From NCBI GenBank assembly GCA_965218785.1, contig OZ244650.1, forward strand, positions 1,088,001 through 1,152,000: 64,000 bases of DNA. The letters are read 5' to 3'. A program made the position numbers and the translations under genes. This DNA comes from Nitrosopumilus sp. GTDB taxonomy: Archaea; Thermoproteota; Nitrososphaeria; Nitrososphaerales; Nitrosopumilaceae. The notes beneath the pieces were generated by a model, which was given only the letters and a program-made list of their open reading frames with translations, was not told the DNA's origin and searched no databases. Of this stretch, positions 11,783-61,309 are shown piece after piece; position 1 is the first letter of the stretch, and each line of letters starts with the position of its first letter.

Positions 11783-12031
11783 TTGGTCAGGACTAGAAGA
11801 GCCAACAGATACTGTGTTGACTGTGGTGCAAGACTGGTGTATTATCCCAGATTATCAAATCCAAAGGCGCCAAACGAGCACAGGGTACTGGTGTATGCCT
11901 GTCCGGACTGCACTGACGACTTTGAAAAGCCCAAAATGTTCTCAATAAAACGTAATCAAGTGGAGGATCCGCTGGAGACAGTGGAGATAGAGATCACACA
12001 GATACATAAAAAAGCGGCAGTCCCAAGATAG
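11783..12031 (+). CDS. Small zinc-ribbon protein
   Basis: CVDCG...CPDC; TTG start. Confidence 0.7.
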   Translation: MVRTRRANRYCVDCGARLVYYPRLSNPKAPNEHRVLVYACPDCTDDFEKPKMFSIKRNQVEDPLETVEIEITQIHKKAAVPR

Positions 12032-12040
12032 TGTAAGGGA

Positions 12041-12268
12041 ATGTCATATACAGAAAAAACCAGAAGTAACGCGTGGTTCCTGCTGCCGGTGCTCTTTGGA
12101 ATAATCGGCGGTGTAGCTGCGTATTTTATCCTACGTCAGGACGATCCGCAAAAGGCAAAAAACTGTCTGTATATGGGAGTCATCTTCATGGTGTTGGGGA
12201 TAGCCGTCAACGCGATCATACTTGATCAGGTGCCGGAGATCAGTTCTGGTATTGATATAGGTGTATGA
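12041..12268 (+). CDS. Small two-TM membrane protein
   Basis: Two hydrophobic helices flanking DDPQKAKNCL. Confidence 0.75.
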   Translation: MSYTEKTRSNAWFLLPVLFGIIGGVAAYFILRQDDPQKAKNCLYMGVIFMVLGIAVNAIILDQVPEISSGIDIGV

Positions 12269-31317: not shown

Positions 31318-31338
31318 TATGGTACTTTTGTATAATGA

Positions 31339-32277: not shown

Positions 32278-32351
32278 ACGTGATTGAATCCAACTTAATC
32301 ATCATGTGTGAGAAAAAACTAACTGTTTTGTCGACATGCGTGCCGCACCGC

Positions 32352-32747
32352 CTACCGCATGAAACGGATTATTCTTGCAAGGCACACATCCGGCCTCTTT
32401 TCAATGTCATGCTCCCACAGACGTATGACGGAGTATCCCTCACGTCTGAGCCGTCTTGATACGCCCCGGTCACGCCTGATGTTTCCCTCTATCTTGTCCC
32501 TCCAGAACCTCTTTGCCGGCTTTTTTTTCTTGTCATAGTTGTACCCGTGCCAAAAGTCCCCGTCGCAGAAGACGAGTGTTTCCGCACCCACCAGAAAGTC
32601 CGGATGTCCGTAGATGTCCGGATGCTGCCGGAACGGTATCCCGTTTGCCCTCAGCATCCCCCGCATTCTTTTCTCGATGCCCGTGTTTTTTCCGCGTATT
32701 CTTGACATCACCCAGCTTCTTTTTTCAGGGGTAAATACGTCGGTCAT
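32352..32747 (-). CDS. vsr: Very-short-patch repair endonuclease
   Basis: MTDVFTPEKRSWVMSRIRGKNT, GHPD, FCDGDFWHG, FWRDKIEGNIRRD and WEH. Confidence 0.95.
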   Translation of the reverse strand: MTDVFTPEKRSWVMSRIRGKNTGIEKRMRGMLRANGIPFRQHPDIYGHPDFLVGAETLVFCDGDFWHGYNYDKKKKPAKRFWRDKIEGNIRRDRGVSRRLRREGYSVIRLWEHDIEKRPDVCLARIIRFMR

Positions 32748-38645: not shown

Positions 38646-40420
38646 AAGAATTCAAAAGTTTTTTTGAGATCGTCTAAAGCAATTTGAAATAAAGGTAATT
38701 TTCTATTGATGTTATTCTTAGGTTTTTGTATATCCCATGATTTGGAAATTAATGTCCAATCCTCATCAGCAATATTCTTTCTTTGATATTTATCTTGCAA
38801 TTTTTCTACATTTGGAATTTTAATAAATTTTAAAAAATATCCAAAATCATTACTGTATTCTTGTCTAATTTCATCTTCGTTTTTATCATACATACTACGA
38901 AAAAATTTAAGTAAATCATCAAAACAATAATTTTTTAAAACTTCAAGATTTGTCACTGTAACTTTTTCTAATTGAGGAATGATATTGCCAGTTAATGCCA
39001 TATCTAAAACAGAATCCGAATAACCCTTAATCTGAGTTCCTATTAACATTGTTTGATAAATGGATTTGAGAATGGCAGTTCCCAGGTCTTTTGTCATTCT
39101 TACAAATGAAAGAATTTCATATGCACTTCTAACAGCTGAAATTAATTCTAAATTAGATTGGTTTTCAGCCAGTTTTTTTGCATTATTGTCTAATTGAATT
39201 AATGAAGATACGGTAAAAGGTAATTCTTTTATTGCATTTAATAATGCATAATAAATTTCTTGTTCAGCATATTCTCTAGAAGGGGATTTTAACTCAACAT
39301 ATGTAAATCGTCTTTTCAAGGCATCAGATAATTTGAATAAGTAATGTTTGTCGGACGTATTTAAAGTTCCAATAATTCTATAATCTTTGGGGATTTCTTG
39401 TTTTTTCAATTTTGCCTCTTTTTCATCTGGAATTAAAAGTGTTTTTGGTTCTTTTGATTCTAAAGATGTGAATAACGGACCAAATGCTTTGTCTATTTCT
39501 GCACGATTGAACTCATCAATTACCAACCATGTTCCAGAATATTTTGTGTCATCATTATTGCTATTAGTTTTATCATCCCAACTTTTTAGTACAGTTTCTG
39601 TAACACAACCATACTGTATTTCATATGATGGGCGATTATCCTTCATCCTAGGCACTATGCCTCCTATGACATCATGAACATTCCATTCAGACGTTGCAGT
39701 ATAAGTTTTTGTATCATATCCCTTTGTTTTTCGAGTCCAAAATGATTTGGGGATTAGTTCTGCAAGATGTGTTTTTCCAGTCCCAACTGGACCCGCAAGT
39801 AAAATATTACGACCACTTGTAAGATGAATCACGATTTCTTCGATAATTTCTTCGTCTAGCAGTAGATGATCTCGAATTTTACGAATGCCCTGTTCCAATT
39901 GTTCTTTGGTAGGAATTTCTAATGGTAAATCTTCAACGATTGTGGGATCAGGTGGCTCTGGCTTATCTCCAGTAGTGGATGTTTTATCAGATGTAGGAAA
40001 GATTAGTTGTCCTGAATCAAGAGCAGATTTTAGCATATCAAGATAATCATTCTCAGAAATAGGTCTAATTTTTTTACCTAGTGACCAGTCACTTCCACCA
40101 AATCGTTTAGGTAACCATTTAGCTTTAATTTTACCATCTATAACGGGATTAATTGGATTAAAATCACTTGTTTGTACATAAGGTGTCTTTTTGTTTTTAT
40201 TCTTTCCAAACGTAACATCTGCATCACCCCAAATAGAAACAAAATTTTGTTTAATATCAAACAAGATTGCTCTATGAATTTGATTTTCACAACTTTTCCA
40301 CTTTCGTTGTTGTCTAGAGAATAATAATAAAGAGTGATTTTCAAATTTGTTTAATTGAATTTCATCATTAGGACTCACATTAATTTTTATAAGAAAATAT
40401 CGTTCAGCCATAATTTTCAT
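38642..40420 (-). CDS. mcrB: McrB-like AAA+ GTPase with EVE/PUA-like N-terminal domain
   Basis: GPVGTGKT, IDEFNRA, GTLNTSD (NxxD) and ALKRRF; N-domain ends in IRPISENDY. Confidence 0.88.
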   Translation of the reverse strand: MKIMAERYFLIKINVSPNDEIQLNKFENHSLLLFSRQQRKWKSCENQIHRAILFDIKQNFVSIWGDADVTFGKNKNKKTPYVQTSDFNPINPVIDGKIKAKWLPKRFGGSDWSLGKKIRPISENDYLDMLKSALDSGQLIFPTSDKTSTTGDKPEPPDPTIVEDLPLEIPTKEQLEQGIRKIRDHLLLDEEIIEEIVIHLTSGRNILLAGPVGTGKTHLAELIPKSFWTRKTKGYDTKTYTATSEWNVHDVIGGIVPRMKDNRPSYEIQYGCVTETVLKSWDDKTNSNNDDTKYSGTWLVIDEFNRAEIDKAFGPLFTSLESKEPKTLLIPDEKEAKLKKQEIPKDYRIIGTLNTSDKHYLFKLSDALKRRFTYVELKSPSREYAEQEIYYALLNAIKELPFTVSSLIQLDNNAKKLAENQSNLELISAVRSAYEILSFVRMTKDLGTAILKSIYQTMLIGTQIKGYSDSVLDMALTGNIIPQLEKVTVTNLEVLKNYCFDDLLKFFRSMYDKNEDEIRQEYSNDFGYFLKFIKIPNVEKLQDKYQRKNIADEDWTLISKSWDIQKPKNNINRKLPLFQIALDDLKKTFEFL

Positions 40421-44277: not shown

Positions 44278-45321
44278 CTAGGATAACCTTGTGTTTCGTA
44301 CTATCTTTTTTGGGAAATTTCTCAGTACGGGATAGCCGTGTGTGCGGGCGTTTTTATAATGCCAGTTTATGTCACGATCATCATAGTTTAGCGCATCAAG
44401 TGATTTTTCTATAATCTTGTTTAGCTTGTGACTCTTGTTCTTCTTGTATGTGTCGTTGCGGCTTAACAGTTTTTCTATGTAGTGTTGTGGCGGAAGATTG
44501 CCCAGTTTCTCACAGTTGCATACTTGACATGATAAAACCAGGTTCCATATCTCGGTATTGCCGATATAGTCAAATGGTATAACGTGGTCTACGTGCGTGT
44601 ATCGGTCATAGTTTAGCCTACTATTACAGTAAAAGCAGTTGTCTGTAAACAGCCTTAATTTATTCATGAATTTTCGCTGATCACGTGCGTCAGGTGTAAC
44701 ACCCTCGATTTTTTGTACCATTCTTGGTGTGCCAAAGTTTCGTATCTCAAGAAATCGGATCCACTCCAGAATTACGGATTTGTACAAGGGTACAAAGTTT
44801 TCCCTGAAGAAACGCATCGCTTTGGGATTGAGCAGTATGCCTCCCTTCGGATCCGTTCTTTTGTTGCCAGATGAATCCTTGTAGTCTATTGCAAAATAGT
44901 CGTAGAATATCTTTTTCTCGATTCTGCCAATTGACTGAAACCTGTGTATGACGTCCTTGCTGCATATACGTGTAATCTCTTTAACACAGTTTGCCACTTT
45001 ATCAGGCTCTTCCTCTTGAATCTTCTCAAATGATTGTGGATATGTATCCTGGTCAAATTCCTTGCGTATTTCAGTTATGACGCTGGGAGTCTGGTTTTTT
45101 GGCCCATGCCGGAGCTTGGACTTGCATTCCTGCAGCCAGTAATATTTGAAAAAGTATTTTGCAATCTCGGAATATTTGACCATCTGCTTGTCACATCTGT
45201 GGCTGTGCTCCAAAAGAAACCTTGCAAGTGCAAATTTGTATGTGTTGTTCTTTGGCCCCTTGGATAGAATTCCTATGAAGGTATTGCGGAATTCTTCATC
45301 AGATGTATTCTTAAACTTCAT
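44278..45321 (-). CDS. HNH endonuclease-domain protein (putative restriction enzyme)
   Basis: NTYKFAL N-domain; CFYC...HVDHVIPF...NLVLSCQVCNCEK. Confidence 0.85.
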   Translation of the reverse strand: MKFKNTSDEEFRNTFIGILSKGPKNNTYKFALARFLLEHSHRCDKQMVKYSEIAKYFFKYYWLQECKSKLRHGPKNQTPSVITEIRKEFDQDTYPQSFEKIQEEEPDKVANCVKEITRICSKDVIHRFQSIGRIEKKIFYDYFAIDYKDSSGNKRTDPKGGILLNPKAMRFFRENFVPLYKSVILEWIRFLEIRNFGTPRMVQKIEGVTPDARDQRKFMNKLRLFTDNCFYCNSRLNYDRYTHVDHVIPFDYIGNTEIWNLVLSCQVCNCEKLGNLPPQHYIEKLLSRNDTYKKNKSHKLNKIIEKSLDALNYDDRDINWHYKNARTHGYPVLRNFPKKIVRNTRLS

Positions 45322-46849: not shown

Positions 46850-47301
46850 TGGAGTGGATCCCTCTAAAATGAGACCGCTTTTTGCATGTTTCTACATACA
46901 GATACGCTTATCTTTTGCATAATTATGCTTGCTACAGTCATCTTATCCTTCCCTCCAACGTTTTTTTAAAAGCGTCTATGACTATGGTCTGCTCACCTAT
47001 GATTCTCTTGAGGGTTTCATTCTCCTTTTGTAGCACGCGTTCGGGGCTCTGTTTGCTGGTTCCGATTACGAACATCTTGCCACCGTTGATGAATTTCTCC
47101 CTCCACTGATAGAATGTCGGGGGATGTATGTTGTACTTGCGGCACAGTTCTGCTGTGCTGATCCTGGTGTTTATGGATTCCAGGATGATTCTTGCCTTTT
47201 CCTGTGGGGTGAATTTGCTCTTTACCATGGTGTTTTACCTCCTAACTTGCTCAAAAAGTGTATGTATGCAAGCGGTCTCATTCTAGAGGGGGTCCTCACC
47301 A
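46850..47301 (-). mobile_element. Internally deleted IS3-family element (intact orfA, orfB deleted, both TIRs)
   Basis: TIRs TGGAGTGGATCCCTCTAAAATGAGACCGC and GCGGTCTCATTCTAGAGGGGGTCCTCACCA; TG...CA ends. Confidence 0.88.
46938..47228 (-). CDS. IS3-family transposase OrfA (HTH plus leucine zipper)
   Basis: KFTPQEKARII...AELCRKYNIHPPTFYQW...ENETLKRIIGE; A-run near the 3' end. Confidence 0.9.
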   Translation of the reverse strand: MVKSKFTPQEKARIILESINTRISTAELCRKYNIHPPTFYQWREKFINGGKMFVIGTSKQSPERVLQKENETLKRIIGEQTIVIDAFKKTLEGRIR

Positions 47302-47607: not shown

Positions 47608-49827
47608 ATGGATGAAAAAATGATCTTAGAATCTGATTGGGATTATCAGCCTAAAATTGGAAAGGATTCTGGTCACCATATAACTAGAGAATCAGAACAT
47701 CGTATTTTGCTTGATTTTATTTCTAGAAGAAATGAGGGATCTATGTTAGTATGTGGACAAAGAGGGGCAGGTAAAACCAGCGCTGTTTTCAAAGCAACCA
47801 ATGAAACCATCATAAAAAATGAAAAAATCAAACCTATTTTGATAAAAGCGACGTCTATTCATTTAAAATCAAAGGAAGATTCAAAAAGTGAGGGAGATTC
47901 AAAAGATGATATCCTTAGAGGGATTATTCGTTCATTGTACAATCAAATTCAAGAGGATTCAGATATTGTTGGAAAATTAAAAATACAAACTTCCAAATTG
48001 TATAATAAAGCAATTGCATCAGAAGTCAAACAGGTAAATCAAATCCGCAGTAAATCAATTCATGAAAAAACATCTCGTATTCGTATTAATTTAATATGTG
48101 CATTATCGCTCGTTGCTGTTGGAATTCTTTCTTTATCAGATATTATTTTAGAATATAATTGGATTTTGTTCATCATAATAATTACAAATGGATTATATTG
48201 GACATGGAATTATTCCATAATAATAAAAAAATCATCCATTAACACAGCATCAAATTATTATCGTTATGATTATGATTTTTCCATTATGCAATCAGAATTT
48301 GAATTGCTCCTAGAAGAATTTGTGAAGGAGAAATTTAAAATATTGTTTATTATGGATGAGTTAGACAAAGTAGAGGAAGAATCACTATCCATAATTTTAA
48401 ATTTAAAAATGCTGATCAATCAAGGTAATGCGTTATTCATATTCATAGCTTCACCAAAAATATTATCGAATATTGAGGACAAAGCAAACCCAAATAGTAC
48501 TTTATTTTCACAGACATTATATCTAAAACGTCCATTATTTGATGAAATGCGTTATTTTATTACAGAGATTATCCTAAATGGTAGCGAACTAACTCAAAAT
48601 ACAGATTACAAAAACTTTCAGAATTTTTTATGCTATCAATCCAAAACTAGTTTTTTTGCTTTGTATAATGTAATCAGAGACACCATGATTAAAATTCTTC
48701 CAGAAGGACCCGTATTGAATTCCAATTTAAATACAGAACAGATCACCAAAGCCAATCTACAAAAATCAATAGAGTGGGTCTACGAGAGGGAAAAATATGA
48801 TACACCTTCGCTATGGGCAGAAAATGATGACATACTAGAAACCCTGTATAATGTTTGTAATAATCTTGAAAACACGCCCAAACTCAAAGACATTGTGTTT
48901 GATGAACAAGGTTTAAAATTCTCAGAAAACAACAGCACCACACTCACAAAACCTAAATCACGCTCTGCAGTAATTGGCTTGTTCACATTTTTAGTGTCTC
49001 AAGGCTATTTACAAAAAACACAAGAAAACACCTATCGTATCATAGGACACTTGGATACAATCATCGAAGAAAAAGGAGGAGTTTTTGCAGTAGACGAACA
49101 ACGATTCAAAGAAGAGTATGAGAACATGTTGGAATTGGCCATCAACATGGCCAACATCCATAACAAACACATAGAAGATTTGGGCGAGATTTTTTCATCA
49201 GATACGATAAATTCAAAATGGTCTACATTTTCCACATGCCTCAATAATTATTTTAACATTACAGCATTCGAAGAACATCATGAAATTTATATAGATTTGC
49301 TAGGAATTGATTCAGCTGTTTACCCATCAGAAAAATTACAGCCGATGACATCTGAATTACAAAATGCTCATGTTGAGATCAAACATAAATTTGTAGATCT
49401 TCTTGCGGCAGTATTCGTTAAAAAAATTCAGGGTTTAGAAATTCACCAAGCAGCAAAGGATATTAACCAAAGTGTTTTATCCAGTTACAGAGTTCCAAAT
49501 ACTCCTTTTGTCTATAATGAATTGATTTTTGATAAGTATTCTAAAAGTCATAAATTACAATATGTGGTAATCACGGAAAATATTCCCATAGATCATCTTA
49601 AAGAATTATTAGATGAAAATGATCGAAATGTCTTGATTATATCTTTGGGAGATTCTGAAGATAATTTAAAATATCAGGACATATCATCGGCACTCTCAAT
49701 AAGAACACTTCAACAGTGTCTTGATGAATTGTACACGTTAAATAATGATACTAAAAAATATCTATTTATGACAATCACGATCCCATTAAAATCCGATGAC
49801 CTGAAGCAAATATTGAATGTGTTATAA
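47608..49827 (+). CDS. KAP-like P-loop NTPase with two TM helices
   Basis: Walker A GQRGAGKT and Walker B LFIMDELDK, with two TM helices between them. Confidence 0.8.
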   Translation: MDEKMILESDWDYQPKIGKDSGHHITRESEHRILLDFISRRNEGSMLVCGQRGAGKTSAVFKATNETIIKNEKIKPILIKATSIHLKSKEDSKSEGDSKDDILRGIIRSLYNQIQEDSDIVGKLKIQTSKLYNKAIASEVKQVNQIRSKSIHEKTSRIRINLICALSLVAVGILSLSDIILEYNWILFIIIITNGLYWTWNYSIIIKKSSINTASNYYRYDYDFSIMQSEFELLLEEFVKEKFKILFIMDELDKVEEESLSIILNLKMLINQGNALFIFIASPKILSNIEDKANPNSTLFSQTLYLKRPLFDEMRYFITEIILNGSELTQNTDYKNFQNFLCYQSKTSFFALYNVIRDTMIKILPEGPVLNSNLNTEQITKANLQKSIEWVYEREKYDTPSLWAENDDILETLYNVCNNLENTPKLKDIVFDEQGLKFSENNSTTLTKPKSRSAVIGLFTFLVSQGYLQKTQENTYRIIGHLDTIIEEKGGVFAVDEQRFKEEYENMLELAINMANIHNKHIEDLGEIFSSDTINSKWSTFSTCLNNYFNITAFEEHHEIYIDLLGIDSAVYPSEKLQPMTSELQNAHVEIKHKFVDLLAAVFVKKIQGLEIHQAAKDINQSVLSSYRVPNTPFVYNELIFDKYSKSHKLQYVVITENIPIDHLKELLDENDRNVLIISLGDSEDNLKYQDISSALSIRTLQQCLDELYTLNNDTKKYLFMTITIPLKSDDLKQILNVL

Positions 49828-50268: not shown

Positions 50269-52437
50269 ATGGCATTTCAAGAACCAATAGATCCCTTCGT
50301 TGAGAAATTACAAGTGCTAATTGATGATTTAAAACAAGATATCAATTATAGGGGATTTGAAGAGATTTTAACAAAAATCGATGAAGAATTTCCATTTGTA
50401 GATTTATCCGAATTTTTAGAAATGTACGTTGATGGTGAATACTCCAAAGTACTAATAGAAAAATTTCATCTTTGCGGATTTATTGATTATTACAAACTTT
50501 TGCAAATTTTAAAATTAAATAAAAAACGAAGATCAGTTAGAAAAGATTCAACATCAAGAAAAACAAATTTTACAGATAGTAAATTGGCAAGACGATATGA
50601 AATATTAAATAACATATTGACAAGATTTCAAAAGTCAATTAAAAATAAAATAAATTATAATGTGTTAAGAGCAGTTATAATTTTACAATTGTATTTAAAC
50701 GAACAAAATTTTACAGATAGTAAAAAAATTCTTGAATCTGTACAAAAAACAATAAAAGATTTTGAACATTTAATTTTAGCCCCACATACACCGCTCTCAA
50801 CAATAAAAGATGATGAAATTAAAAAAATGTTAGATATGATATTACTAGAATTAAAAAATAACTCATTCATAGAAATAGATAATTCAAATAACTTTAGACT
50901 GGAAGTACATCAATTGCTTATTTGTAAATATATTTTTAACAACATACAAAATAGAAAAGATGGGATTACATATCAAGAATTAGTTATTTCTATTAAACAC
51001 AAACTACCAATATTATTACAAATTCCTCCTGCATTAATTATAATCACATTACAGGATTTCATAAATCAAAATATGGTAATTAGAAAGGAAGGGTATTGGA
51101 AATTCAAACCATTTTTTGATCAATATTTTACATTTGAAAACTATGAAAAAATGAATTTTGAAAATACAGATTCATTTAGAAAAAATAGAGAGTTTTTTGG
51201 GAGAAAAATTACTCCTAAAGAATTCATTCAAGAATTATTTGAACTTCAAAGGGGGAATTTTGAGGACCAAGATGATCAAGTAACACGAATTGCAGGCATG
51301 GTTTTGACAAACTCAAACATGATGAGTCATCCTCCAAATGATCTTAAAGAATTTGATTTTGTAGTAGATTTGTCAAGGTATGAATTTACAAAAAAACAGC
51401 AACAGATTATCAGCAATCTCAACCTAGAAATAAAATCCAATATCATTTATGTAAAAGTTATGATAAATGATGAAATTAAAGTTGATGAAATTTCCGATTT
51501 AATTCTCAAATTAAAAAAAAGAGAGCGAAACGAACAAGGCTTCATCATTTCATTTACACGTCCAGAAAAAATAATTTTACAGATATTAGAGAAAAACAAA
51601 ACAATTCAAATAATTTCAGAAAATGAATTAAGAGAGTGGTGTAAAATCACGCCAATCATTCCATCAAGAAGAGGAGCAGTTGCCATAATACGCCAAGGAG
51701 ATAATCGTGAAAGTATTGTGAAAATAAAGTCAGTCAATTATGAATCTGGAAGAGCAGACGTCATATTATTACCAAAAATGAATGAAAGCACTCAATACAT
51801 CGGATCTCTTGAGGAACTTACCATACCTATAAATATAAAAAAATTTATTGATTATTCCAATATTTATTTCCAATTTCTTTCAAAATTACGTCAAATTTCA
51901 AAAACAGATATCTTTAAAAAAATAATTTCAGAAAGCATATCAAAAACATCTACATTTAACAAAATAGTTGAAAAAAGAATTATTTTTGAGAAAGAAATAG
52001 AATATAGATTCGTTGGAAATTCAAAATGTAGGATTGATTTTATAAAATATCTTGACAAGGATTCATTGAAATATAGAACCGATGATTTATTTTCATGTAC
52101 TTGTTTTCAGTGGGATCAGAAAAGTAAAACAAATGGATTATGTGAACATTTAATTTTTATTTTAAATGAGTCAATTAAAGAAATATTTTCATTAGAGAAT
52201 AAAGTATCAGAGAGAGAAATTGCACATTATTTACTATTAATAGAACAAAGGATGGATTTGTTTCTAAAAAGATTACGATTTTCAAATAATGACGGATCTA
52301 TGATTGCAGAATGTCCAAATTGTGGGCAGATTGAACATAATCTTAAAGGAGTAGAAGAAAGATTTGGATATCGCCAAATGAATAAAGATAATAAATTTTC
52401 GCTTAGACGACAATCGAGATGTAAAGAGTGCAGATAA
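50269..52437 (+). CDS. Multidomain protein: helical/wH region, Mrr-like REase fold, SWIM finger, C-terminal zinc finger
   Basis: GNFEDQ...FDFVV...IYVKV...GFIISF; SWIM FSCTC...LCEHL; CPNCG...RCKECR. Confidence 0.65.
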   Translation: MAFQEPIDPFVEKLQVLIDDLKQDINYRGFEEILTKIDEEFPFVDLSEFLEMYVDGEYSKVLIEKFHLCGFIDYYKLLQILKLNKKRRSVRKDSTSRKTNFTDSKLARRYEILNNILTRFQKSIKNKINYNVLRAVIILQLYLNEQNFTDSKKILESVQKTIKDFEHLILAPHTPLSTIKDDEIKKMLDMILLELKNNSFIEIDNSNNFRLEVHQLLICKYIFNNIQNRKDGITYQELVISIKHKLPILLQIPPALIIITLQDFINQNMVIRKEGYWKFKPFFDQYFTFENYEKMNFENTDSFRKNREFFGRKITPKEFIQELFELQRGNFEDQDDQVTRIAGMVLTNSNMMSHPPNDLKEFDFVVDLSRYEFTKKQQQIISNLNLEIKSNIIYVKVMINDEIKVDEISDLILKLKKRERNEQGFIISFTRPEKIILQILEKNKTIQIISENELREWCKITPIIPSRRGAVAIIRQGDNRESIVKIKSVNYESGRADVILLPKMNESTQYIGSLEELTIPINIKKFIDYSNIYFQFLSKLRQISKTDIFKKIISESISKTSTFNKIVEKRIIFEKEIEYRFVGNSKCRIDFIKYLDKDSLKYRTDDLFSCTCFQWDQKSKTNGLCEHLIFILNESIKEIFSLENKVSEREIAHYLLLIEQRMDLFLKRLRFSNNDGSMIAECPNCGQIEHNLKGVEERFGYRQMNKDNKFSLRRQSRCKECR

Positions 52438-52470
52438 ATAATTGACAATAAATGGGATCAAAAATGTTTT

Positions 52471-53673
52471 ATGCCTATAATAATGTGTAAATATATGAGT
52501 AATGAATATTCAGAAGATGCTCGAAAAATTAATGAATATATAGAAAATAATCCTTCTTGTAAGATTCCAAAAACAATTTCCATAATATTACAGGGTAAGA
52601 AAACAGATTTGCAAACATTTCGCCTTCCATTAGATTTGACATATTATAATATCAAAAATGGAAGATTTGCAGCAGAGTATATTGATCTTATAAAAAAGGA
52701 AGGTCATGTGTTAAATCCAAAAAATCCAGATGATTCAAAAAAAATTCAAACGTTATTGTTTGAGCTAGATCTTAAACAAAGTGTGATTTTAGAAAAAGAT
52801 CTACAACAACATGGACAAAAAGATCCAGGAATTATGACTCATGATGGATTTGTAATCAATGGAAACAGAAGACGTTCTGTACTTGAAGAATTAGGATCAC
52901 AAGGACATTCTAAATTCAAATTTATCGAAGTTGCCAGATTGCCACCAAATGTTTCATCACAAGATCTATGGAAATTAGAAGCAGGGATACAATTATCACG
53001 TTATGTTCAATTAGATTATGGTCCCATCAATGAATTATTAAAATTCAAGGAGGGAATAGACTCAGGATTAATGCCTAAAGAAATAGCAAATGCACTCTAC
53101 GGGGGATTTAAAGAAAAGGATATTTTAGAAAAATTAGAACAACTACAATTAATCATGGAATATCTAAATTTTATTGGAGAACCAGGTGTCTTTAATAAAG
53201 TAAAGAGGGTTCATGAGCATTTTATTGATTTACAAAATATTCTAAAAGGATTGAAAAAATATGATGCAGGACTAGATGAAATTATAAGTGTAAAAAGAAT
53301 AGGATTTCAATTAATCCATGATGGCGTTCCTCAGAGAGAAATTAGAAAAATTAAAGAAATTCTTTCAAATGAAAAATCAAAGAAGGAATTTTTGAGAGCA
53401 CGGGAATATAGTAGACCAGAAAAACAAAATAAGAAAAGAGAAAAAAGAATATTAGCAGAATCAAAAGATGAATTTACAGAAACACGAGTTATTTTTAACA
53501 ACTGTTTGGATTCAACAAAAGCATTATCAGAATCCCAACAACCAGAAAAATTACTCAGACGAGCATTGACGAATTTAGAAAGTGTAGATTTTGATTCTAA
53601 TCTATTACAAAAACCAGTGATCATATCATTAATTTCAGATATCGAATCAATAATCAAAAAAATAAAAAAATAA
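52471..53673 (+). CDS. ParB/Srx-like domain protein, paralogue 1
   Basis: YYNIKNGRF, GQKDPGIMTHDGFVINGNRR. Likely start 52495. Confidence 0.8.
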   Translation: MPIIMCKYMSNEYSEDARKINEYIENNPSCKIPKTISIILQGKKTDLQTFRLPLDLTYYNIKNGRFAAEYIDLIKKEGHVLNPKNPDDSKKIQTLLFELDLKQSVILEKDLQQHGQKDPGIMTHDGFVINGNRRRSVLEELGSQGHSKFKFIEVARLPPNVSSQDLWKLEAGIQLSRYVQLDYGPINELLKFKEGIDSGLMPKEIANALYGGFKEKDILEKLEQLQLIMEYLNFIGEPGVFNKVKRVHEHFIDLQNILKGLKKYDAGLDEIISVKRIGFQLIHDGVPQREIRKIKEILSNEKSKKEFLRAREYSRPEKQNKKREKRILAESKDEFTETRVIFNNCLDSTKALSESQQPEKLLRRALTNLESVDFDSNLLQKPVIISLISDIESIIKKIKK

Positions 53674-53727
53674 TCTAATTTGCATGAAATATTAACTATT
53701 TAAATACAGTAAAATTAATTCTTGGGA

Positions 53728-54660
53728 TTAACTTGAGGTTAAAGAAAATTTCAAGCCAGTTTTAAATTTTTGTGTTTTCTTCATTTCTTTTTTGAACGCA
53801 CTAATTCGTTTGTTAGCATATGCTTGATACATAGGATTTTTTTCCATTCCAATGTATTTTCGATTTAATTTTATCGTCGCGATGGCAGTAGTGCCACTTC
53901 CCATAAACGGATCTAAAACAACATCTTCATCTTTGGTAAACAATTTGATAAACCATTCAGGCAAGGCTATTGGAAAAGCAGCACTGTGATTGACATTTTG
54001 ACATTGAGTGGCCATGTGAAGTACATTTGTAGGATAAACCACATCCTTACCCTTCCAATTAGAGACATTTTTACTAAGTCCACTCATCACTTTTGATTCA
54101 CATCTATATTTGTCAGTATCAGACAGATTTTTGAGCCTAGAGTCAGCCCATTTACCCATTGGGATCATTACAGATTTTTGATACATTTTGAATTTTTTCT
54201 GTCTAGTAAAATGAAGACATCTTTCCCATGAATCTCTAAATCGATTTGGCCATTTTCCAGGAAATGAGTTTTTTTTATGCCAGATATATTCTTCAGTCCA
54301 TAACCAACCCTGTTTTTTCATCTCTAATATTAATTCGATTACATAAGTTTCACGTTCACAATTTATAGATCTTTCTTTAATGTTCAAGATAAAAGAACCA
54401 CGAGGCTTTAAAACACGTTTTAGTTGTTTTGAAATTGGTAAAAACCATTCAATATAATTTTTTGCTGAAATACTTTCGTATGAATTTCTTCGCTTACCGG
54501 CATAAGGTGGGGAAGTAATAATAAGATCAACTGAACTAGAATCTAATTTAAATAATTTGGTTAAACAATCACAACGATAGATTACATTATGACGTTGTCT
54601 TGACTCTGGCAATGTACTCATTTTTTTCCAAGATCGTCTCTTATAGGTTTTTTCAATCAA
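53728..54660 (-). CDS. Beta-class amino DNA methyltransferase (probably N4-cytosine)
   Basis: Motif IV TSPPY precedes HSAAFP and motif I LDPFMGSGTT. Confidence 0.92.
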   Translation of the reverse strand: MIEKTYKRRSWKKMSTLPESRQRHNVIYRCDCLTKLFKLDSSSVDLIITSPPYAGKRRNSYESISAKNYIEWFLPISKQLKRVLKPRGSFILNIKERSINCERETYVIELILEMKKQGWLWTEEYIWHKKNSFPGKWPNRFRDSWERCLHFTRQKKFKMYQKSVMIPMGKWADSRLKNLSDTDKYRCESKVMSGLSKNVSNWKGKDVVYPTNVLHMATQCQNVNHSAAFPIALPEWFIKLFTKDEDVVLDPFMGSGTTAIATIKLNRKYIGMEKNPMYQAYANKRISAFKKEMKKTQKFKTGLKFSLTSS

Positions 54661-55646
54661 ACATCACCGAGTTTTTGGACATGATAATTTTCAGCAGTAA
54701 CAGAAAATAATTTTTTTATAAAAATTTTTCTAAAAGGATTTTGAATTTTCTGAATTTCCAAATTATTGTTTTTTGTTTCAATATCAACGTTAGGTACAAA
54801 ATAAATCCAATATTTATCTTTTAATTCCGAAGCAATTTTTTTTTCATTTTCAGACCAATGAAAATCTAAATCTTTACCAGAGGAACCTTTTACTTCAATG
54901 AATCTATCATAATCCCTATTGGCAGATTCACGATCAAATGATATAATATCAAACCCAGCATTGGCATGTTGTATACTAATGCGCTGAACTTTCTTGGATT
55001 CAAAAAAACATTCAAGATTTTTGAGTCTATTTTTCTCATATTTTATAACAATATCTTCTGCGATATCACCAATTTTTTTCATCAGTCTTAATTGTTCATC
55101 AATTTGTTTTTGACTAATTCGTACTTTCAAAGTAATTTTTTTAGATGAGATTTTATCGTTATATTGTGGATTAAGAATTACTTTATCACCAAATAATAGA
55201 AGTAATTCACATTCATACAAAAGAGGCAATAATTCTTTTTTATGAAATAAATCATAAACCTGATCAGAAGGAGCCCATACTTTATCTGGAGTTGTTGCAA
55301 ATCTAGACAAACTATCATTGATGGATTGGGATAAAGAACCATGAAGAAAACATTGTTCTCGAAAAAGTTTTTTTAATTCATAGTTTAAACCAAAACTTTT
55401 TTCATATTCATCGAAAATATGATTACCCAATATGGTGATTTCAATTACATTATTTTCTAATTTTAGTATATTGACATCTTCACAGAATTTTCTAAGTTCA
55501 TCAAAATCAGGATACAGTGCCTGCTCAACAGGAGAATTGTTGAATGTTTTGGCAACATATGCGGTTACGGCTTTACTATTCTTATCATTTTCAAATTTTT
55601 TTATAATTCCTAAAAGTTTTGGAATTTGTTTTAATTTGATTGTCAT
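54657..55646 (-). CDS. DUF3883 (NOV_C) PD-(D/E)XK nuclease-domain protein
   Basis: IGDIAEDIVIKYE...AGFDIISF...RFIEVKGS...WSENE...YWIYFV. Confidence 0.88.
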   Translation of the reverse strand: MTIKLKQIPKLLGIIKKFENDKNSKAVTAYVAKTFNNSPVEQALYPDFDELRKFCEDVNILKLENNVIEITILGNHIFDEYEKSFGLNYELKKLFREQCFLHGSLSQSINDSLSRFATTPDKVWAPSDQVYDLFHKKELLPLLYECELLLLFGDKVILNPQYNDKISSKKITLKVRISQKQIDEQLRLMKKIGDIAEDIVIKYEKNRLKNLECFFESKKVQRISIQHANAGFDIISFDRESANRDYDRFIEVKGSSGKDLDFHWSENEKKIASELKDKYWIYFVPNVDIETKNNNLEIQKIQNPFRKIFIKKLFSVTAENYHVQKLGDV

Positions 55647-55647
55647 A

Positions 55648-57627
55648 TTACAGTCTTTTTAAATCACGCAAATGTTTAACTAATGAATCATAATCTCGGT
55701 TAAATTCATCTTTGGTTTCATTAATTACATCAAAATTAACATTTTGAAGAAATGGATCATCAAGAGCAGTAGTCATGTCTTCCCATTTCTCCCAAAGTCT
55801 TTGATGAATTTGCTCATCAATCGTATCCCTGCCAATTACAAGATGATAATTAACAGTGACATCTTGAGGCATCCCTACCCTATGAATTCTATCAACTGAT
55901 TGCATAAACTGAGCACCGTTAAAATTTCGGTCCAAGTATATTGCATTTCTACAAACAGATTCTTCTTTTGCATTTTTGTGCAATGAAACAGACTCACCAA
56001 GAGATGCTGGTGTGGCAATTAGTACTTTGTAATCAGGATTATTTTTAAATTTGTATACCAAATCATCTCTATTTGGTTGATCATCAGGATCTCTGGATAC
56101 GTCACCATAAATCAAAATAGGATCAAATTCTTTTAAAACATCTTCAGCGTATATGTGCATATTAAGTAAAAAGGAACTCCAGATGAGTACTTTTTCTCCT
56201 TTGTTGACAAGATCACTGGTTAGTGATGCAACCTTTCGTATTTTGCTAGGAATTTCAAGATCAGAGTATTTTGTAATCTTTTCTGAAATTGATAGATTTT
56301 TCAAATCATTATTATCAATAGAATCAACGTCAAACCCAAGCTGGGCACTTACCATTTCTCTTGAAGAATTAAATAATGGGCTGTTAACATTGAATTCGTG
56401 TGACATTTCAAACAACAGAGAAGGATTGGAAGCAGATTGAAGTAATCGAATCATTTTTGCAATTCTGAATCTTTGTAATTTTGCTTGTTCTTCCAAAGAA
56501 TCAATTTCTTCAAGAGTTTTGCTAGCAATTACATCATAGATTTGTCTTTGATGATCTCCAAGATCCACCGTGATTGGAATAAATTTTGGTTCTGGAAGAT
56601 GAAGATCATCTTTCATAACTCGTGTAAATAAAGAACGTAAACGTTCGCGATGAGTATTACTTAATCCACGTTTTTTTACATAATCATTATATTTACTTTG
56701 ATTTCCCAAAGGAAGATCATGCGGCCACAGATAAGTTATCTGATTCCACAAATCCTGAGAATTGTTAGGCATTGGAGTTCCTGAAAGAATGATTCTACGA
56801 GTTGCAAATTGTGCAAGAAATAAAGCAGCGTTTGCCCATGCACCTAGATGAGGATTTTTAATTCTGTGAGATTCATCAACGATGAGAACGGTTTTATATT
56901 TTTTAAGAAAATTCATCAATTCCATTCGTTTTGAATTAGATGTTTGATAATGGAGTAAAAATAAATCATAATTATCACCAATATCTTCTAAAATTTCTGC
57001 AATATCTCCTTTAATTCTTAATGTCCTGGCAGATTTCTCAAAACACCCAACATATTCGTCCTCCCAAGGAACAAATGATGCAATAGGACCAATAACCATA
57101 ATTTTTTCAATAATCCCGTCTTCCAACCATTTTGAGATAGCAGCATAAGTCATAGTTGTTTTACCGCTGCCAGGTACAGAAAAATTTGCACCGTTGTTTA
57201 CTGCCAACAAATGTTCGACAGATTGTTTTTGAAAATCCAATAACTCTCTTTTAAAAGTTGCACCCAAAATTGGATTGTGCTTACCTTTATCTTTGACTGC
57301 AGATCCTTGATCTAAGGCTTTTTGATATAATTTATTTTCTAGTTGTTGTTCTGAAAGATTTTTTTTAATATCATCACTAATTGTAAGGGACCCTAGTTTA
57401 GGGTTATCATTAAAAAAATCTTTCATGTATTGTGCAGTTTTAAAAAATTTTACGGTGTTATTTGTTTTAGGATAAACAAAGGTAATTCTATTTTCATCTT
57501 GTTGAATTTGTTGAAAATCACCACTGATCGCAGTATCCATTAAATCATAATCGGTTTCATAGTCACCTGTATTGTCATACTCTAGAACAAGATTTCCAGT
57601 ATTATGATCAATAGTAAGAGATGTCAT
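55648..57627 (-). CDS. SNF2-family (SWI2/SNF2) helicase/translocase
   Basis: LLDFQ, VPGSGKT, IVDESH, LSGTP, GESVSL and QSVDRIHRVG. Confidence 0.92.
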   Translation of the reverse strand: MTSLTIDHNTGNLVLEYDNTGDYETDYDLMDTAISGDFQQIQQDENRITFVYPKTNNTVKFFKTAQYMKDFFNDNPKLGSLTISDDIKKNLSEQQLENKLYQKALDQGSAVKDKGKHNPILGATFKRELLDFQKQSVEHLLAVNNGANFSVPGSGKTTMTYAAISKWLEDGIIEKIMVIGPIASFVPWEDEYVGCFEKSARTLRIKGDIAEILEDIGDNYDLFLLHYQTSNSKRMELMNFLKKYKTVLIVDESHRIKNPHLGAWANAALFLAQFATRRIILSGTPMPNNSQDLWNQITYLWPHDLPLGNQSKYNDYVKKRGLSNTHRERLRSLFTRVMKDDLHLPEPKFIPITVDLGDHQRQIYDVIASKTLEEIDSLEEQAKLQRFRIAKMIRLLQSASNPSLLFEMSHEFNVNSPLFNSSREMVSAQLGFDVDSIDNNDLKNLSISEKITKYSDLEIPSKIRKVASLTSDLVNKGEKVLIWSSFLLNMHIYAEDVLKEFDPILIYGDVSRDPDDQPNRDDLVYKFKNNPDYKVLIATPASLGESVSLHKNAKEESVCRNAIYLDRNFNGAQFMQSVDRIHRVGMPQDVTVNYHLVIGRDTIDEQIHQRLWEKWEDMTTALDDPFLQNVNFDVINETKDEFNRDYDSLVKHLRDLKRL

Positions 57628-58895
57628 TATGAATCCAATTTTATTTTGAGTTTTTCAAAATGACGAAGAATTTGCCGGATTATCCCAGTACATTGTTTAC
57701 CGGTCAGTTGGTCACTATCATAATCAATTCCGTCTAGATATTCCAAGGCATTGCCCAATAATCTTGGAAGATCATGTTCATTTTTCTTGACATTTAATGC
57801 TTCAACCGCATTAGTCCACATAGTATTAATCTCACTAGTTTTTGATTCATCCTCATCTTTGTCAGGATTAGGATCTTTAAATTCATTATCTATCATATCA
57901 GACACATCATCGCCAAGAGATTTTTTGGGTTTAGGAACTACAAGATCTGGAGATATCGGTTTTGATTTTTCTGCAATTTGTTCAATCCATTCTAATGCCT
58001 TATCAGATTCAAATTTCACCATTTCTCTAATTTTTCGTATTTCTAAATGAGAACGACCATCACGAATAAGTGCCCAAATAGCACGTTTGAGAGATTTCCT
58101 ACGAACCGGATCATCTACTCTATCATAGTAAAAATCAAGAATATTTTGTGCGTTAATAAAATGTTCAACTTTGCCTTTAGCTTCACTGTATTTTTGAGGC
58201 ATTCCATTAAATTTCAGATATTCTTCAATGAGGTCCAATCTTTTGAGTTTTTTTGAAATTTCACTATCATCGCGAAAACCGTATAAAGTTGTAGCAATTT
58301 CGTTTGGAGTTAACCCAGATTCAATTCCTTCCTTTAATTTTAATAATTCGTTGATAGGTCCATACCTTACAATTTCATCTTTTCCTAATTGGATACCAGC
58401 CTCCAATTTCCAAAGATCATTTTTGTCTATAGATGAAGGCAGTCTAGCTACCTTCATTACATTAAATTTAGAATTTTCCTTGGATAAATTTTGTAAAAGT
58501 GATAATCGTCTATTCCCATCAATGACAAATCCATCATGAGTCATAATTCCCGGATTCCACTGACCACGTTGTTTAATGTCAATAGAGGTTCGATCTGTTT
58601 CAATAGGGTCTAAATTAAGAAGAAGATTTTGAATTTTTCTAGAATCATCTTTGTTTGTGGGATCAAATGATCGTCCACCATTCTTTCGAACTAATTCCAA
58701 ATATTCTGCTTTGAATCTACCATTTTTGATATTAAAGTAAAGATAGCCCAAAGGGATATTGTAGACATACAAAAGTTCTTTTGTTCCTTTTAGTAAAACC
58801 GGAACCCGTTCATCAGTCAAACATTCGTCTTTATTTTTATCAATATACTCTTGTAATGCAAGTTTATTCTCAGGATTATCCAACATCATATTCAA
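57627..58895 (-). CDS. ParB/Srx-like domain protein, paralogue 2
   Basis: YFNIKNGRF, GQWNPGIMTHDGFVIDGNRR; TAATG overlap with SNF2. Confidence 0.8.
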   Translation of the reverse strand: MNMMLDNPENKLALQEYIDKNKDECLTDERVPVLLKGTKELLYVYNIPLGYLYFNIKNGRFKAEYLELVRKNGGRSFDPTNKDDSRKIQNLLLNLDPIETDRTSIDIKQRGQWNPGIMTHDGFVIDGNRRLSLLQNLSKENSKFNVMKVARLPSSIDKNDLWKLEAGIQLGKDEIVRYGPINELLKLKEGIESGLTPNEIATTLYGFRDDSEISKKLKRLDLIEEYLKFNGMPQKYSEAKGKVEHFINAQNILDFYYDRVDDPVRRKSLKRAIWALIRDGRSHLEIRKIREMVKFESDKALEWIEQIAEKSKPISPDLVVPKPKKSLGDDVSDMIDNEFKDPNPDKDEDESKTSEINTMWTNAVEALNVKKNEHDLPRLLGNALEYLDGIDYDSDQLTGKQCTGIIRQILRHFEKLKIKLDS

Positions 58896-59557: not shown

Positions 59558-61309
59558 TCAATGAGGAATTCCCGTCCAATCTTCATAACCTTCCCATCCT
59601 TTTTCTCGATAAACATAACTTGGATTATGTGGGATGTTTTTTGGTTTGGCAGAATCATTCCATTCCCCATATTCTTTATAATTTTTGAAATTTAGATTTC
59701 TAACATATGCTTTTGCTTCGTCAAAAGGCAAGTATTCTCGCTCATTAATTCCATACCAATCATAAATATCAAAAAAGAATCTACCAGCAGTTGGAAAATA
59801 TTTGAATGGTTTTGCAGGAATGTTTTTTGGTTTTTTACCAGATTTAGCATATTTAGTCCAATCAGATGAAGATTCAAAATTTAAAGTTGATACGAATTTT
59901 TTTTGATCTTCATAAGAAAGATACTCACGATCAAATGCGCCAAACCAGTTATCCCAATCTATCCATTGTTTTTTATAAATCAGATTAGGTTTTGCAGGAA
60001 TATTTTTTGGTTTTTTACCAGATTTACAGTATTCTTTCCATTCTGATTGATAATCAAAAATCAAAATAGAGACAAATTTTTTGGCATCTGTAAATGACAG
60101 ATATGCTCTATGCTGAACACCTAGCCAGTCATCATAATCTTTCCAATCACCGGTGTACACATTTTTTGGATTAGATGGTACGTTTATGGGTAATTTACCA
60201 GATTTACAAAATAATTTCCATTCTTTTTCACTATCTAAGGCCAGATTTAAGACAAATTTTTTGGCATCTGTAAATGACAGGTATTTTCGTTTAGTGATAC
60301 CTAACCAATCATTCCAACCTTTCCATTCAAAGGAATAATCTTTTTTTGGATTTAGTGGAATATTTTCAGGCTTTTTGCCTGAAATACAAAATTTTTTCCA
60401 ATCTTTTTCATTTATCAAATTTAAATTCTGAACAAACATCCTAGATTCTTCAAAAGACAAATATCGAGAAGGTTCAGTAGAAGTATTTTTGAAGGTTTGA
60501 TAAATTTTTTCCAATTCATCAACATCAAATTGTAAAGTTAATTTTTTACTTTCATTAGAAACTAACCTTGTAAAATCATCATTTAGATTAGAATTAGATT
60601 TTTTTGCAACAACGTTTCCAATGATTTCTTTTTCATCATTAGTTAATGGACGTTTTAAAGAAGATGTAAGGGCCATTTCAACAAATAATTGATGAACCTC
60701 AGAAAATTCAATTTTTCCTATGTATAGACCCTCTTTTCCTCTAGATTTGGTTAATTTTTTTATTAGTTTAATTGCCAAATCTAATCTATCAATTTTCATA
60801 TATGCAAAAATTTTAACATGACTAGCATAGATCCCAGTTTGTTTTTCAAGTAAAGGAATCACGTCTGCATACTGTCCCAACATACACATTGCTTTTGCTT
60901 TTTCCAAAGAAAAGAGAGAATCATCCATTCCATCATCTAATTTTTTTTGGTTTATTCTGTCACATAATGAAATAACTTTTTGATAATTACCAGTCTGGAA
61001 ATATGTAATCATTCTATTCAAACAGGTTGTACCATGTAACAACAATTTGTCAGAAATATCATCTGTAGATTCTTCTGATCTAAATTTATTTTCTATATTT
61101 TTTTTAAAAAAAGTATCTGGATAATCAGACATGGAAAATGAGGAATATACGGAGTCTGGCACATCATAATACCAAAATAATTTTCCGTTATCAAATCCAA
61201 TTTCTACAACATTTTGTTTCCAACTATATCTATAACAACGAATTAATCCTGAATTTTTTCTATAGTGATACCCAACAAATCCAGATTCAATTTTATCTTT
61301 AGAAATCAT
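59558..61309 (-). CDS. KTSC domain + TPR-like + five 'integrase-repeat'-type units
   Basis: N-terminal YSW...EIGFDNG...YYDVP...FFKKNI (KTSC); five YLSF.EAK.FV..L...EW...CKSGKKP.NIP..P...Y...W..W.DW.G units. Confidence 0.75.
   Translation of the reverse strand: MISKDKIESGFVGYHYRKNSGLIRCYRYSWKQNVVEIGFDNGKLFWYYDVPDSVYSSFSMSDYPDTFFKKNIENKFRSEESTDDISDKLLLHGTTCLNRMITYFQTGNYQKVISLCDRINQKKLDDGMDDSLFSLEKAKAMCMLGQYADVIPLLEKQTGIYASHVKIFAYMKIDRLDLAIKLIKKLTKSRGKEGLYIGKIEFSEVHQLFVEMALTSSLKRPLTNDEKEIIGNVVAKKSNSNLNDDFTRLVSNESKKLTLQFDVDELEKIYQTFKNTSTEPSRYLSFEESRMFVQNLNLINEKDWKKFCISGKKPENIPLNPKKDYSFEWKGWNDWLGITKRKYLSFTDAKKFVLNLALDSEKEWKLFCKSGKLPINVPSNPKNVYTGDWKDYDDWLGVQHRAYLSFTDAKKFVSILIFDYQSEWKEYCKSGKKPKNIPAKPNLIYKKQWIDWDNWFGAFDREYLSYEDQKKFVSTLNFESSSDWTKYAKSGKKPKNIPAKPFKYFPTAGRFFFDIYDWYGINEREYLPFDEAKAYVRNLNFKNYKEYGEWNDSAKPKNIPHNPSYVYREKGWEGYEDWTGIPH
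59564..60465 (-). repeat. Five diverged ~60-aa coding repeats
   Basis: Near-identical DNA blocks such as GACAAATTTTTTGGCATCTGTAAATGACAG near 60071 and 60251. Confidence 0.85.

Follow-up and report, generated by a model that had tools for sequence, protein, structure and literature searches.

A candidate methylase-guarded, restriction-like cassette of ParB-like, SNF2 and NOV_C proteins, with a probable second ParB/nuclease arm in Nitrosopumilus

Introduction

What would two paralogous ParB-like proteins do in an ammonia-oxidizing archaeon beside a DNA motor, a nuclease and a DNA methylase? We address this question for positions 50269-58895 of a 64,000-nucleotide (nt) stretch of Nitrosopumilus sp. 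(GenBank assembly GCA_965218785.1, contig OZ244650.1, positions 1,088,001 to 1,152,000), here called the window. In this region a minus-strand operon encoding a ParB-like protein (copy A), an SNF2-family ATPase, a NOV_C (DUF3883) nuclease and a DNA methylase is met by a plus-strand pair encoding a 722-amino-acid (aa) multidomain protein and a second ParB-like protein (copy B). A preliminary description, made from the sequence, had proposed a defence system with restriction-modification (R-M) logic and no recognized name. We find that the minus-strand genes belong to a widespread, unnamed core, and that the feature specific to the window is the addition of a second ParB paralogue and a 722-aa nuclease-fold protein. 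On balance, we favor the view that the operon is a methylase-guarded, ATP-driven restriction-like cassette and that the pair forms an optional second ParB/nuclease arm.

Results

Layout of the locus

All six open reading frames (ORFs) claimed by the preliminary description are present, and their coordinates were exact. On the minus strand, ParB-like copy A (57627-58895; 422 aa when read from a TTG codon) has an N-terminal ParB domain, a helix-turn-helix region and a helical C-terminal part. It is followed by the SNF2-family ATPase (55648-57627; 659 aa), in which an N-terminal domain of ~125 residues is variable, by the NOV_C/DUF3883 nuclease (54657-55646; 329 aa), whose C-terminal half is a PD-(D/E)XK domain, and by a beta-class amino DNA methyltransferase, here the methylase (53728-54660; 310 aa from TTG). 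The plus strand encodes first the 722-aa protein (50269-52437), which combines a pair of winged helices, a domain of restriction-endonuclease type, a KOW-like barrel, a SWIM zinc finger and, at the C-terminus, a zinc ribbon. Next comes ParB-like copy B (52471-53673; 400 aa), a paralogue of copy A. This pair converges on the minus-strand operon, and 54 nt separate the end of copy B from the methylase stop codon.

The tight coupling described for the four minus-strand genes stands at two of the junctions: the ParB-like and SNF2 genes overlap by one base in TAATG, and the gap from SNF2 to NOV_C is 1 bp. The 4-nt overlap of the NOV_C and methylase genes depends on a TTG start for the methylase, for which an in-frame ATG 13 codons inside the ORF, at 54621, is the alternative. 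For copy A, the ATG at 58889, two codons in, is the more likely start, because an identical database protein has 420 aa.

Conservation and distribution of the cassette

Relatives were collected by scanning one genome per species with a 20-sequence alignment, which found 524, and 79 loci from more than 20 phyla of bacteria and archaea were fetched. By local profiles, an SNF2 gene directly follows the ParB-like gene in 70 of the 79; the nine exceptions are five loci cut by contig ends, two in which a small inserted ORF precedes SNF2-NOV_C, one degraded locus and one that lacks SNF2. NOV_C comes next in 66 of the 70, and the other four comprise three cuts by contig ends and one locus (L093) with a TIR-domain protein. 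Among these 66 full loci, a DNA methylase is directly adjacent in 56 and within two genes in 57. Nine have none within two genes, four of them cut by the contig end right after NOV_C. Gaps between the cassette genes are mostly between -4 and +15 nt. Tabulated in this way, as the preliminary description had suggested, the order ParB-like, SNF2, NOV_C is conserved in other genomes (66 of 79 loci), usually with its adjacent methylase, which supports the claim that these genes belong together.

The cassette is accessory, patchy and horizontally spread. Nine of 201 Nitrosopumilaceae genomes were positive, as were none of the 16 other genomes of the same genus, and GC content is 24-33% at the region against 40-46% in its flanks. 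Phyla are intermixed in a quick maximum-likelihood tree of 68 SNF2 proteins. Eight further Nitrosopumilaceae loci were inspected: seven carry the trio in the same order, and in the eighth the ParB-like gene is followed by an unrelated ATPase gene. Close homologues with names come from Nitrosarchaeum, Nitrosopelagicus and Nitrosopumilus, which identifies the source of the window as an ammonia oxidizer.

Some details of this sample concern single loci. The SNF2 protein of L025, on a contig binned as Chloroflexota, is near-identical to that of a Nitrosopelagicus single-cell genome (L029; branch lengths 0.018), and the SNF2 protein of L028, on a contig binned as Gammaproteobacteria, falls inside a clade dominated by Nitrososphaerota; mis-binning or very recent transfer is the likely cause of both placements. 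In L093 (Bacteroidota), a 346-aa TIR-domain protein (11184-12224) takes the place of NOV_C after the ParB-like and SNF2 genes, which suggests that the effector may be swappable.

The ParB-like proteins

Copies A and B are identical at 164 of 404 aligned residues (41%, E 8e-84) over their full length and are the only two members of the family in the genome. The identical blocks quoted in the preliminary description lie within this alignment, and the two proteins are true paralogues. The label "ParB-like" fared differently by sequence and by structure. By sequence it found no library match: neither protein was matched in Pfam (at E 10), NCBIfam (at E 1) or PADLOC, and a profile of 70 family members retrieved designed helical proteins and no ParB from the PDB sequences. 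By predicted structure it was supported. The AlphaFold2 model of copy A, built from the 70-member alignment, reached a predicted local distance difference test score (pLDDT) of 92.2 and a predicted template modelling score (pTM) of 0.88, and all six of its Foldseek matches at E <= 0.001 were Noc, ParB or Spo0J, with probability 1.00. VIA-align aligned the model with KorB (Z 10.6, root-mean-square deviation [rmsd] 3.9, 193 residues aligned), Noc (Z 10.1, rmsd 3.9, 197 aligned) and the N-domain of pNOB8 ParB (Z 10.1, rmsd 3.8, 208 aligned). These alignments cover residues ~35-300, the N-terminal domain plus the DNA-binding region, and score above those with minimal ParB/Srx folds such as sulfiredoxin and the serine kinase (Z 5-8). 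Both unannotated proteins are thus confidently predicted to have a ParB/Noc/KorB fold that sequence libraries do not recognize.

Residues R60 (in NIKNGRF), Q112, G122, N128-R129-R130 (GNRR) and E165 are invariant in 70 of 70 sequences, and copy B retains every invariant residue of this alignment. In the model of copy A, GNRR stands at the start of a helix after two short strands, a position that we take to match the GxxR nucleotide box of ParB. Of the features of the CTPase-type ParB subgroup, the N-terminal domain fold, the arginine-rich box (N128, R129, R130) and the helix-turn-helix are recognizable in the predicted structure. The family thus appears to have in common with the ParB/Spo0J, Noc and KorB clamps the fold of the N-terminal domain and DNA-binding region as well as the GNRR box, but it differs from them in lacking a sequence-level match, a ParA and a partition context, in its C-terminal part, and in its predicted partner, an SNF2 ATPase. 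The ParA/Soj ATPase that sits beside ParB in ParABS has no counterpart here: the CbiA/ParA family (PF01656) has five matches in the genome and none inside the window, in agreement with the earlier remark that the window has no ParA.

The motor, the nuclease, the methylase and a predicted complex

The SNF2 protein matches SNF2-rel_dom in Pfam (E 1.6e-18), with a ResIII match (E 6.7e-10) overlapping this stronger one. The motifs GSGKT (Walker A), DESH, SGTP and QxxDRIHRxG (arginine motif) are retained in at least 90% of 68 sequences. The NOV_C protein carries its NOV_C/DUF3883 domain at residues 196-290 (Pfam, E 3.9e-17), and D233 together with E250-V-K252 is retained in at least 90% of 63 sequences. 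The N-terminal halves of both proteins are poorly conserved. The methylase matches N6_N4_Mtase in Pfam (PF01555, E 1.7e-44) and MTase_II in PADLOC (E 2.1e-50), and direct reading of its sequence gives the beta-class motif order, SPPY ... FMGSG. SPPY is usually the mark of N4-cytosine enzymes.

Modeling of the ParB-like protein with SNF2, which the preliminary description had suggested, gave a positive result. For SNF2 residues 1-455 with copy A, the interface score ipSAE was 0.69, compared to 0.00 for the best of three controls; in calibration this mark was attained by 116 of 157 solved complexes and 2 of 215 mismatched pairs, a scale that is only roughly valid here because our alignments were custom-made. 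At least 97% of the contacts agreed across runs, with a pLDDT of at least 77 for the partner. The predicted interface joins SNF2 residues 23-74, in the variable N-terminal domain, and 309-315 to ParB residues 225-317, in the middle helical region. The model lends support to binding of the ParB-like protein at the N-terminal end of SNF2; to our knowledge there is no solved ParB-SNF2 complex.

The second arm

The 722-aa protein had no match in Pfam at E 10 and none in NCBIfam or PADLOC. Its AlphaFold2 model, made with 35 homologues, reached a pLDDT of 84.1, and Foldseek with the whole model returned no match at E <= 0.001. VIA-align, run as a whole-protein search and giving middling Z values, placed winged helices at residues 120-213 and 215-293 and aligned residues 329-462 with AF1548 (Z 9.9, rmsd 2.7, 108 aligned), 313-467 with the nuclease domain of LlaBIII (Z 8.9) and 316-463 with the small subunit of R.BspD6I (Z 8.4); AspBHI scored Z 7.9. 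A KOW-like barrel follows at residues 465-519 (Z 9.1, rmsd 1.4). The SWIM motif CxC...CxH (C610, C612, C625 and H627) is invariant in 35 sequences and precedes the C-terminal zinc ribbon. The description of this protein as REase-fold/SWIM, that is, of restriction-endonuclease fold, is upheld by the domain at residues ~313-467 and by the invariant SWIM motif.

Close relatives of the 722-aa protein lie beside both ParB copies, SNF2 and NOV_C in seven of seven loci: the window, L021, L022, L023 and the metagenome loci L121, L122 and L123, of which the last two are near-identical. Four gene orders are represented, namely convergent (window, L121), colinear (L022, L023), divergent (L122, L123) and on the opposite strand behind NOV_C (L021). 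Since the linkage survives rearrangement, we argue for a shared function of the second arm and the core, and the earlier proposal that the 722-aa protein and the second ParB copy are tied to the core agrees with their recurrence in these four arrangements. In a FastTree phylogeny of 81 ParB-like proteins, the A copies (those beside SNF2) and the B copies are sister clades within one 15-member clade, mostly from records named Nitrososphaerota, which indicates one old ParB duplication. Three singleton loci, including the closest relative L020/L012, group with the A copies; their B arm was apparently lost, or is optional.

A rather unlikely but still serious alternative is that copy B and the 722-aa protein are an independent two-gene system that merely adjoins the four-gene cassette. 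The pair lies on the opposite strand and is convergent in the window, and L024, where an unrelated 467-aa protein comes before copy B, speaks against a fixed partnership. There are, moreover, distant homologues of the 722-aa protein in a helicase/ABC-ATPase/HNH cluster that has no ParB-like gene. Against independence, the close relatives are found solely beside both ParB copies, SNF2 and NOV_C, whatever the gene order, and none of the loci seen had the pair by itself. SWIM domains have also been described as companions of SWI2/SNF2 ATPases.

Two observations concern the wider family. The 467-aa protein of L024 was considered as a member of the 722-aa family and rejected (hhalign probability 0.3). 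The cluster that the distant homologues (25-35% identical) end is itself conserved and consists of five genes: HNH (~290 aa), an SF2 helicase of ResIII/SNF2-like type (~690 aa), an SMC-like AAA_23 ATPase (~710 aa), a 154-aa protein and the 722-aa-like protein. It was found at loci L111, L114, L115, L116, L117 and L118, in the Nitrosopumilaceae genomes G049, G057, G145, G071, G080 and G195, none of which had a ParB-like match in the search of 201 Nitrosopumilaceae genomes. It looks like a separate unnamed defence-like system.

Comparison with known systems

The claim that this gene set is not a named system was confirmed with PADLOC 2.0, as the preliminary description had suggested, and with NCBIfam: the cassette is absent from both as a named system, and the matches of its motor and nuclease were partial or below the cut-offs. 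In PADLOC, the SNF2 protein partially matches ZorD (E 3.9e-30), DpdE, HmaA and DrmD, and the NOV_C protein matches the C-terminus of TmtA (Tiamat), PD-T4-1 and PDC-S36. The NCBIfam scores of the SNF2 protein are far below every cut-off (ZorD 43.7 vs 1500, DrmD 32.0 vs 950, DpdE 19.9 vs 500). Full-length matches to Zorya ZorD, DISARM DrmD or Dpd DpdE are therefore lacking, and our scans of the window found no ZorABC, DrmABC or Dpd genes. In the literature searched, the coverage of which was incomplete, we found no name for the cassette beyond "AbiR-like". With 524 relatives among species representatives, 1424 clusters retrieved by copy B among representatives at E <= 0.001, and more than 20 phyla in both prokaryotic domains, the cassette is common and has been missed by the defence libraries searched.

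The implied lack of precedent did not hold. AbiR of Lactococcus lactis pKR223 is described in a review as a sigma70-like AbiRa (~820 aa), a ParB-like AbiRb and an SNF2-type AbiRc that needs the LlaKR2I methylase, borrowed from an R-M system, and is toxic without it (PMC13064643). The same review reports that AbiR lowers phage DNA replication and gives phage resistance, classes it as abortive infection and calls its mechanism unknown (PMC13064643). By this description its architecture and methylase dependence look like the same design, so the preliminary description overstated the novelty of the locus. The likeness lies in the ParB-like protein followed by an SNF2 ATPase, where fold and gene order fit the review's account of a system known to us by description alone. 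The window differs in having no sigma-like AbiRa (no sigma-70 family match among 32 window ORFs scanned, 19.5-64 kb) and in having a separate NOV_C gene, a methylase within the operon, and an additional ParB copy accompanied by another nuclease. Operons resembling AbiRb/AbiRc have been remarked on in SAR11 and not assigned there to a system.

Plasmids carry further variants. On Enterococcus faecalis plasmids (L119:4309-12379), genes for a sigma70_r4 protein (864 aa), a ParB-like protein and SNF2 stand in an AbiR-type layout followed by transposase genes; the latter two proteins match our family profiles at E 8e-60 and 5e-90, and no NOV_C or methylase was recognized in the stretch. Enterococcus accounts for 52 records among 66-71 plasmid matches. 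On a Lactococcus lactis conjugative plasmid (L120:3002-11016), Type III Mod and Res genes precede the ParB-like (E 3e-57) and SNF2 (E 2e-93) genes, with overlapping ends and without NOV_C. PADLOC 2.0 gave no AbiR match for any cassette member or for the Enterococcus and Lactococcus plasmid proteins, and a homology search with the Enterococcus ParB-like protein gave no AbiR-named protein among the best 120 matches listed. Because the ParB-like/SNF2 pair occurs with a sigma-like protein (AbiR type), with Type III genes, with type II genes, and with NOV_C and a lone methylase, we regard it as a module for methylase-bearing systems.

By architecture, AbiR, likened here by its description, looks like the closest studied relative, and Hma the next. 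HmaA is reported to be an SNF2 protein fused to NOV_C that has nickase activity and protects against T4 (PMC11232893), and Hma (HmaA, HmaB, HmaC) has also been treated as a BREX-related DUF499 system (PMC3710099). Hma shares with our cassette an SNF2 motor, a NOV_C/DUF3883 nuclease and a methylase, but motor and nuclease are one protein in HmaA and two genes, 1 bp apart, in the window. The HmaA model in PADLOC matches weakly and partially (E 6e-11 on SNF2, E 3.6e-4 on NOV_C). Neither the HmaC DUF499 ATPase nor the HmaB DUF1156 methylase is among the window ORFs scanned; the window methylase is of PF01555, and the place of the third component is taken by the ParB-like protein. Type III R-M systems resemble the cassette in their beta-class amino methylase, SF2 ATPase and PD-(D/E)XK nuclease, and in ATP-driven action on unmodified DNA, as proposed here for the cassette. 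They differ in that the cassette has an SNF2-type motor apart from the nuclease, an extra ParB-like subunit and a methylase interchangeable among three families, and no Type III model of NCBIfam matched it.

The methylase slot

Pfam on 113 flanking proteins, together with local profiles, typed the methylase in this slot as PF01555 at 27 loci, Dam-like D12 at 16 and C5 at 14. On the SNF2 tree the family changes 15 times, compared to a shuffled mean of 34.6, and none of 200 shuffles attained so low a number; all C5 loci fall in one clade. Since kin sequences carry the same labels, this test shows clustering and not co-evolution. Sixteen of the 66 full loci have a further endonuclease-like gene no more than two genes away, and the trio of the Bacillota clade is flanked by a BanI/DpnII-like endonuclease on one side and a C5 methylase on the other. 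The window methylase is 66-77% identical to those of four related loci, three of which also have an EcoO109I-like endonuclease; in these three, L013, L014 and L017 (66-69% identity), the methylase is paired with it. No such partner was found in the window or in the closest relative, L012. The methylase is thus not the fixed, dedicated component that had been envisaged, as its family varies by lineage and it is sometimes half of a type II pair.

Discussion

How the cassette may work

The R-M-like logic of the preliminary description is retained as the best reading, with the genes as one functional unit. The methylase, by its SPPY motif probably an N4-cytosine enzyme, would mark host DNA. The ParB-like protein, with its nucleotide-binding-type N-terminal fold and DNA-binding region, may act as a DNA-engaging switch that binds, via its middle helical region, the N-terminal domain of SNF2. 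The SNF2 motor would then translocate on unmarked DNA and bring the NOV_C nuclease, which would nick or cut it; without the methylase, the trio would be expected to attack the host's own DNA. The second arm may have arisen by one old ParB duplication in the clade that holds the cassette, and copy B probably directs the second nuclease, the 722-aa winged-helix/REase/SWIM protein, through the same motor.

Several findings do not sit easily with this reading. The closest cassette relative (L012/L020, 76-82% identical) has neither a second ParB copy nor a 722-aa protein, so the second arm is dispensable. Five of the 66 full loci, three of them twin-ParB loci, have intact flanks and no recognized methylase within two genes. 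The methylase is interchangeable among three unrelated families, and in several relatives it comes with its own type II endonuclease (EcoO109I-like, HaeIII, NgoPII or BanI/DpnII-like), so it may be part of a conventional R-M pair. At the two methylase swaps that we compared (L075 vs L053/L055 and L074 vs L048/L058), the trio kept all its domains, and trio identities of 60-73% and 31-50% were similar to those with neighbors that have the same methylase family; we therefore see no evident site-reading domain in the trio that is matched to the methylase. Finally, the ipSAE of 0.69 expresses the confidence of the model and is not a measurement.

The main rival explanation, which we consider unlikely, is a guard or abortive system in which the trio monitors methylation of the host's newly made DNA, or the activity of the adjacent R-M system, and responds to a phage that blocks methylation or restriction by killing or arresting the cell. 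Such a sensor, untied to one recognition site, would fit the change of methylase family without change of a trio domain, and in many loci the trio is embedded among complete type II or Type III R-M genes or lies next to them. AbiR, too, is classed as abortive infection and is toxic without its methylase in the review cited above (PMC13064643), but toxicity of this kind would be equally expected of a plain restriction enzyme. The guard explanation also has no known trigger, and the window, like most loci, has no separate endonuclease to be guarded, given that an extra endonuclease-like gene was found in 16 of 66.

It is more improbable still that an orphan type II methylase and an independent ParB-like/SNF2/nuclease effector, blind to methylation, are merely clustered in defence islands. 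The three methylase families in the slot, the pairing of window methylase homologues with EcoO109I-like endonucleases in L013, L014 and L017, and the five full loci without a nearby methylase are what side-by-side genes would produce. The methylase is, however, the immediate neighbor in 56 of 66 full loci, often with overlap of stop and start, its family follows the SNF2 tree far better than chance, and AbiR is reported to require its methylase (PMC13064643). We give very little credence to a mobile-element module for partition or for establishing or protecting incoming DNA, outside host defence: ParB, adenine methylase and SWI2/SNF2 domains have been described together in polyvalent proteins of phages and plasmids, for which a role in protecting injected DNA has been suggested, and relatives lie on plasmids (71 records matched, 63 typed mobilizable or conjugative), but the nuclease active site is conserved, the window has no ParA, the cassette lies among restriction genes on a chromosome, and AbiR is reported to give phage resistance (PMC13064643).

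Within the restriction-like cassette that we favor, a bolder proposal, which we hold to be doubtful, is that the ParB-like protein is an immune sensor in the form of a nucleotide-gated clamp: it would load exclusively on DNA without the host methyl mark, spread, and recruit and activate SNF2 and the nuclease, and in ammonia-oxidizing archaea the duplicated clamp would let one motor serve both the NOV_C and the 722-aa nucleases. If so, the duplication would widen the range of targets or provide a backup against phage inhibitors, ParB-type CTP switches would be a recurrent part of prokaryotic immunity, and the 25-year-old AbiR phenotype would be explained. Until now, ParB-type switches have been associated with the partition of chromosomes and plasmids, with nucleoid occlusion and with transcription control; here one is combined with an SNF2 motor and a nuclease. 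An understanding of the cassette would resolve the mechanism of AbiR and whether ParB-type nucleotide switches act in immunity, and would explain how a single set of effectors can cooperate with methylases of three unrelated families. The gain of a second effector arm by such a system could be studied in the twin-ParB form as a natural experiment.

Neighboring genes

The cassette lies in a defence island, whose other genes in the window are at 21623-23866, 26856-28961, 30025-32747, 37092-40420, 44278-45321, 46938-47228 and 47608-49827. They include a C5 methylase with a 312-aa protein and Vsr, an McrB-like AAA_5 ATPase with a 517-aa partner, an HNH protein, two HATPase_c_3 proteins with a second HATPase_c domain, an IS3-type HTH_Tnp_1 transposase fragment and, at 47608-49827, a 739-aa AAA protein. 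The AAA protein was considered as a cassette member and rejected, since it lies beside the cassette in no other locus. On the other side, upstream of ParB copy A, a gene at 59558-61309 encodes a 583-aa protein with KTSC and integrase-repeat (INT_rpt) domains. Its counterpart in the closest relative (L012:4454-6208) is 60% identical, and it too was rejected as part of the cassette because it recurs in that relative only. Beside or near the cassettes of other loci we observed genes for Eco57I/MmeI-like type IIG enzymes of 917-1047 aa (L012:6347-9103, L014:7023-10166, L017:13391-16144 and L025:83-2851); those of L012, L014 and L025 are divergent and directly upstream of the ParB-like gene.

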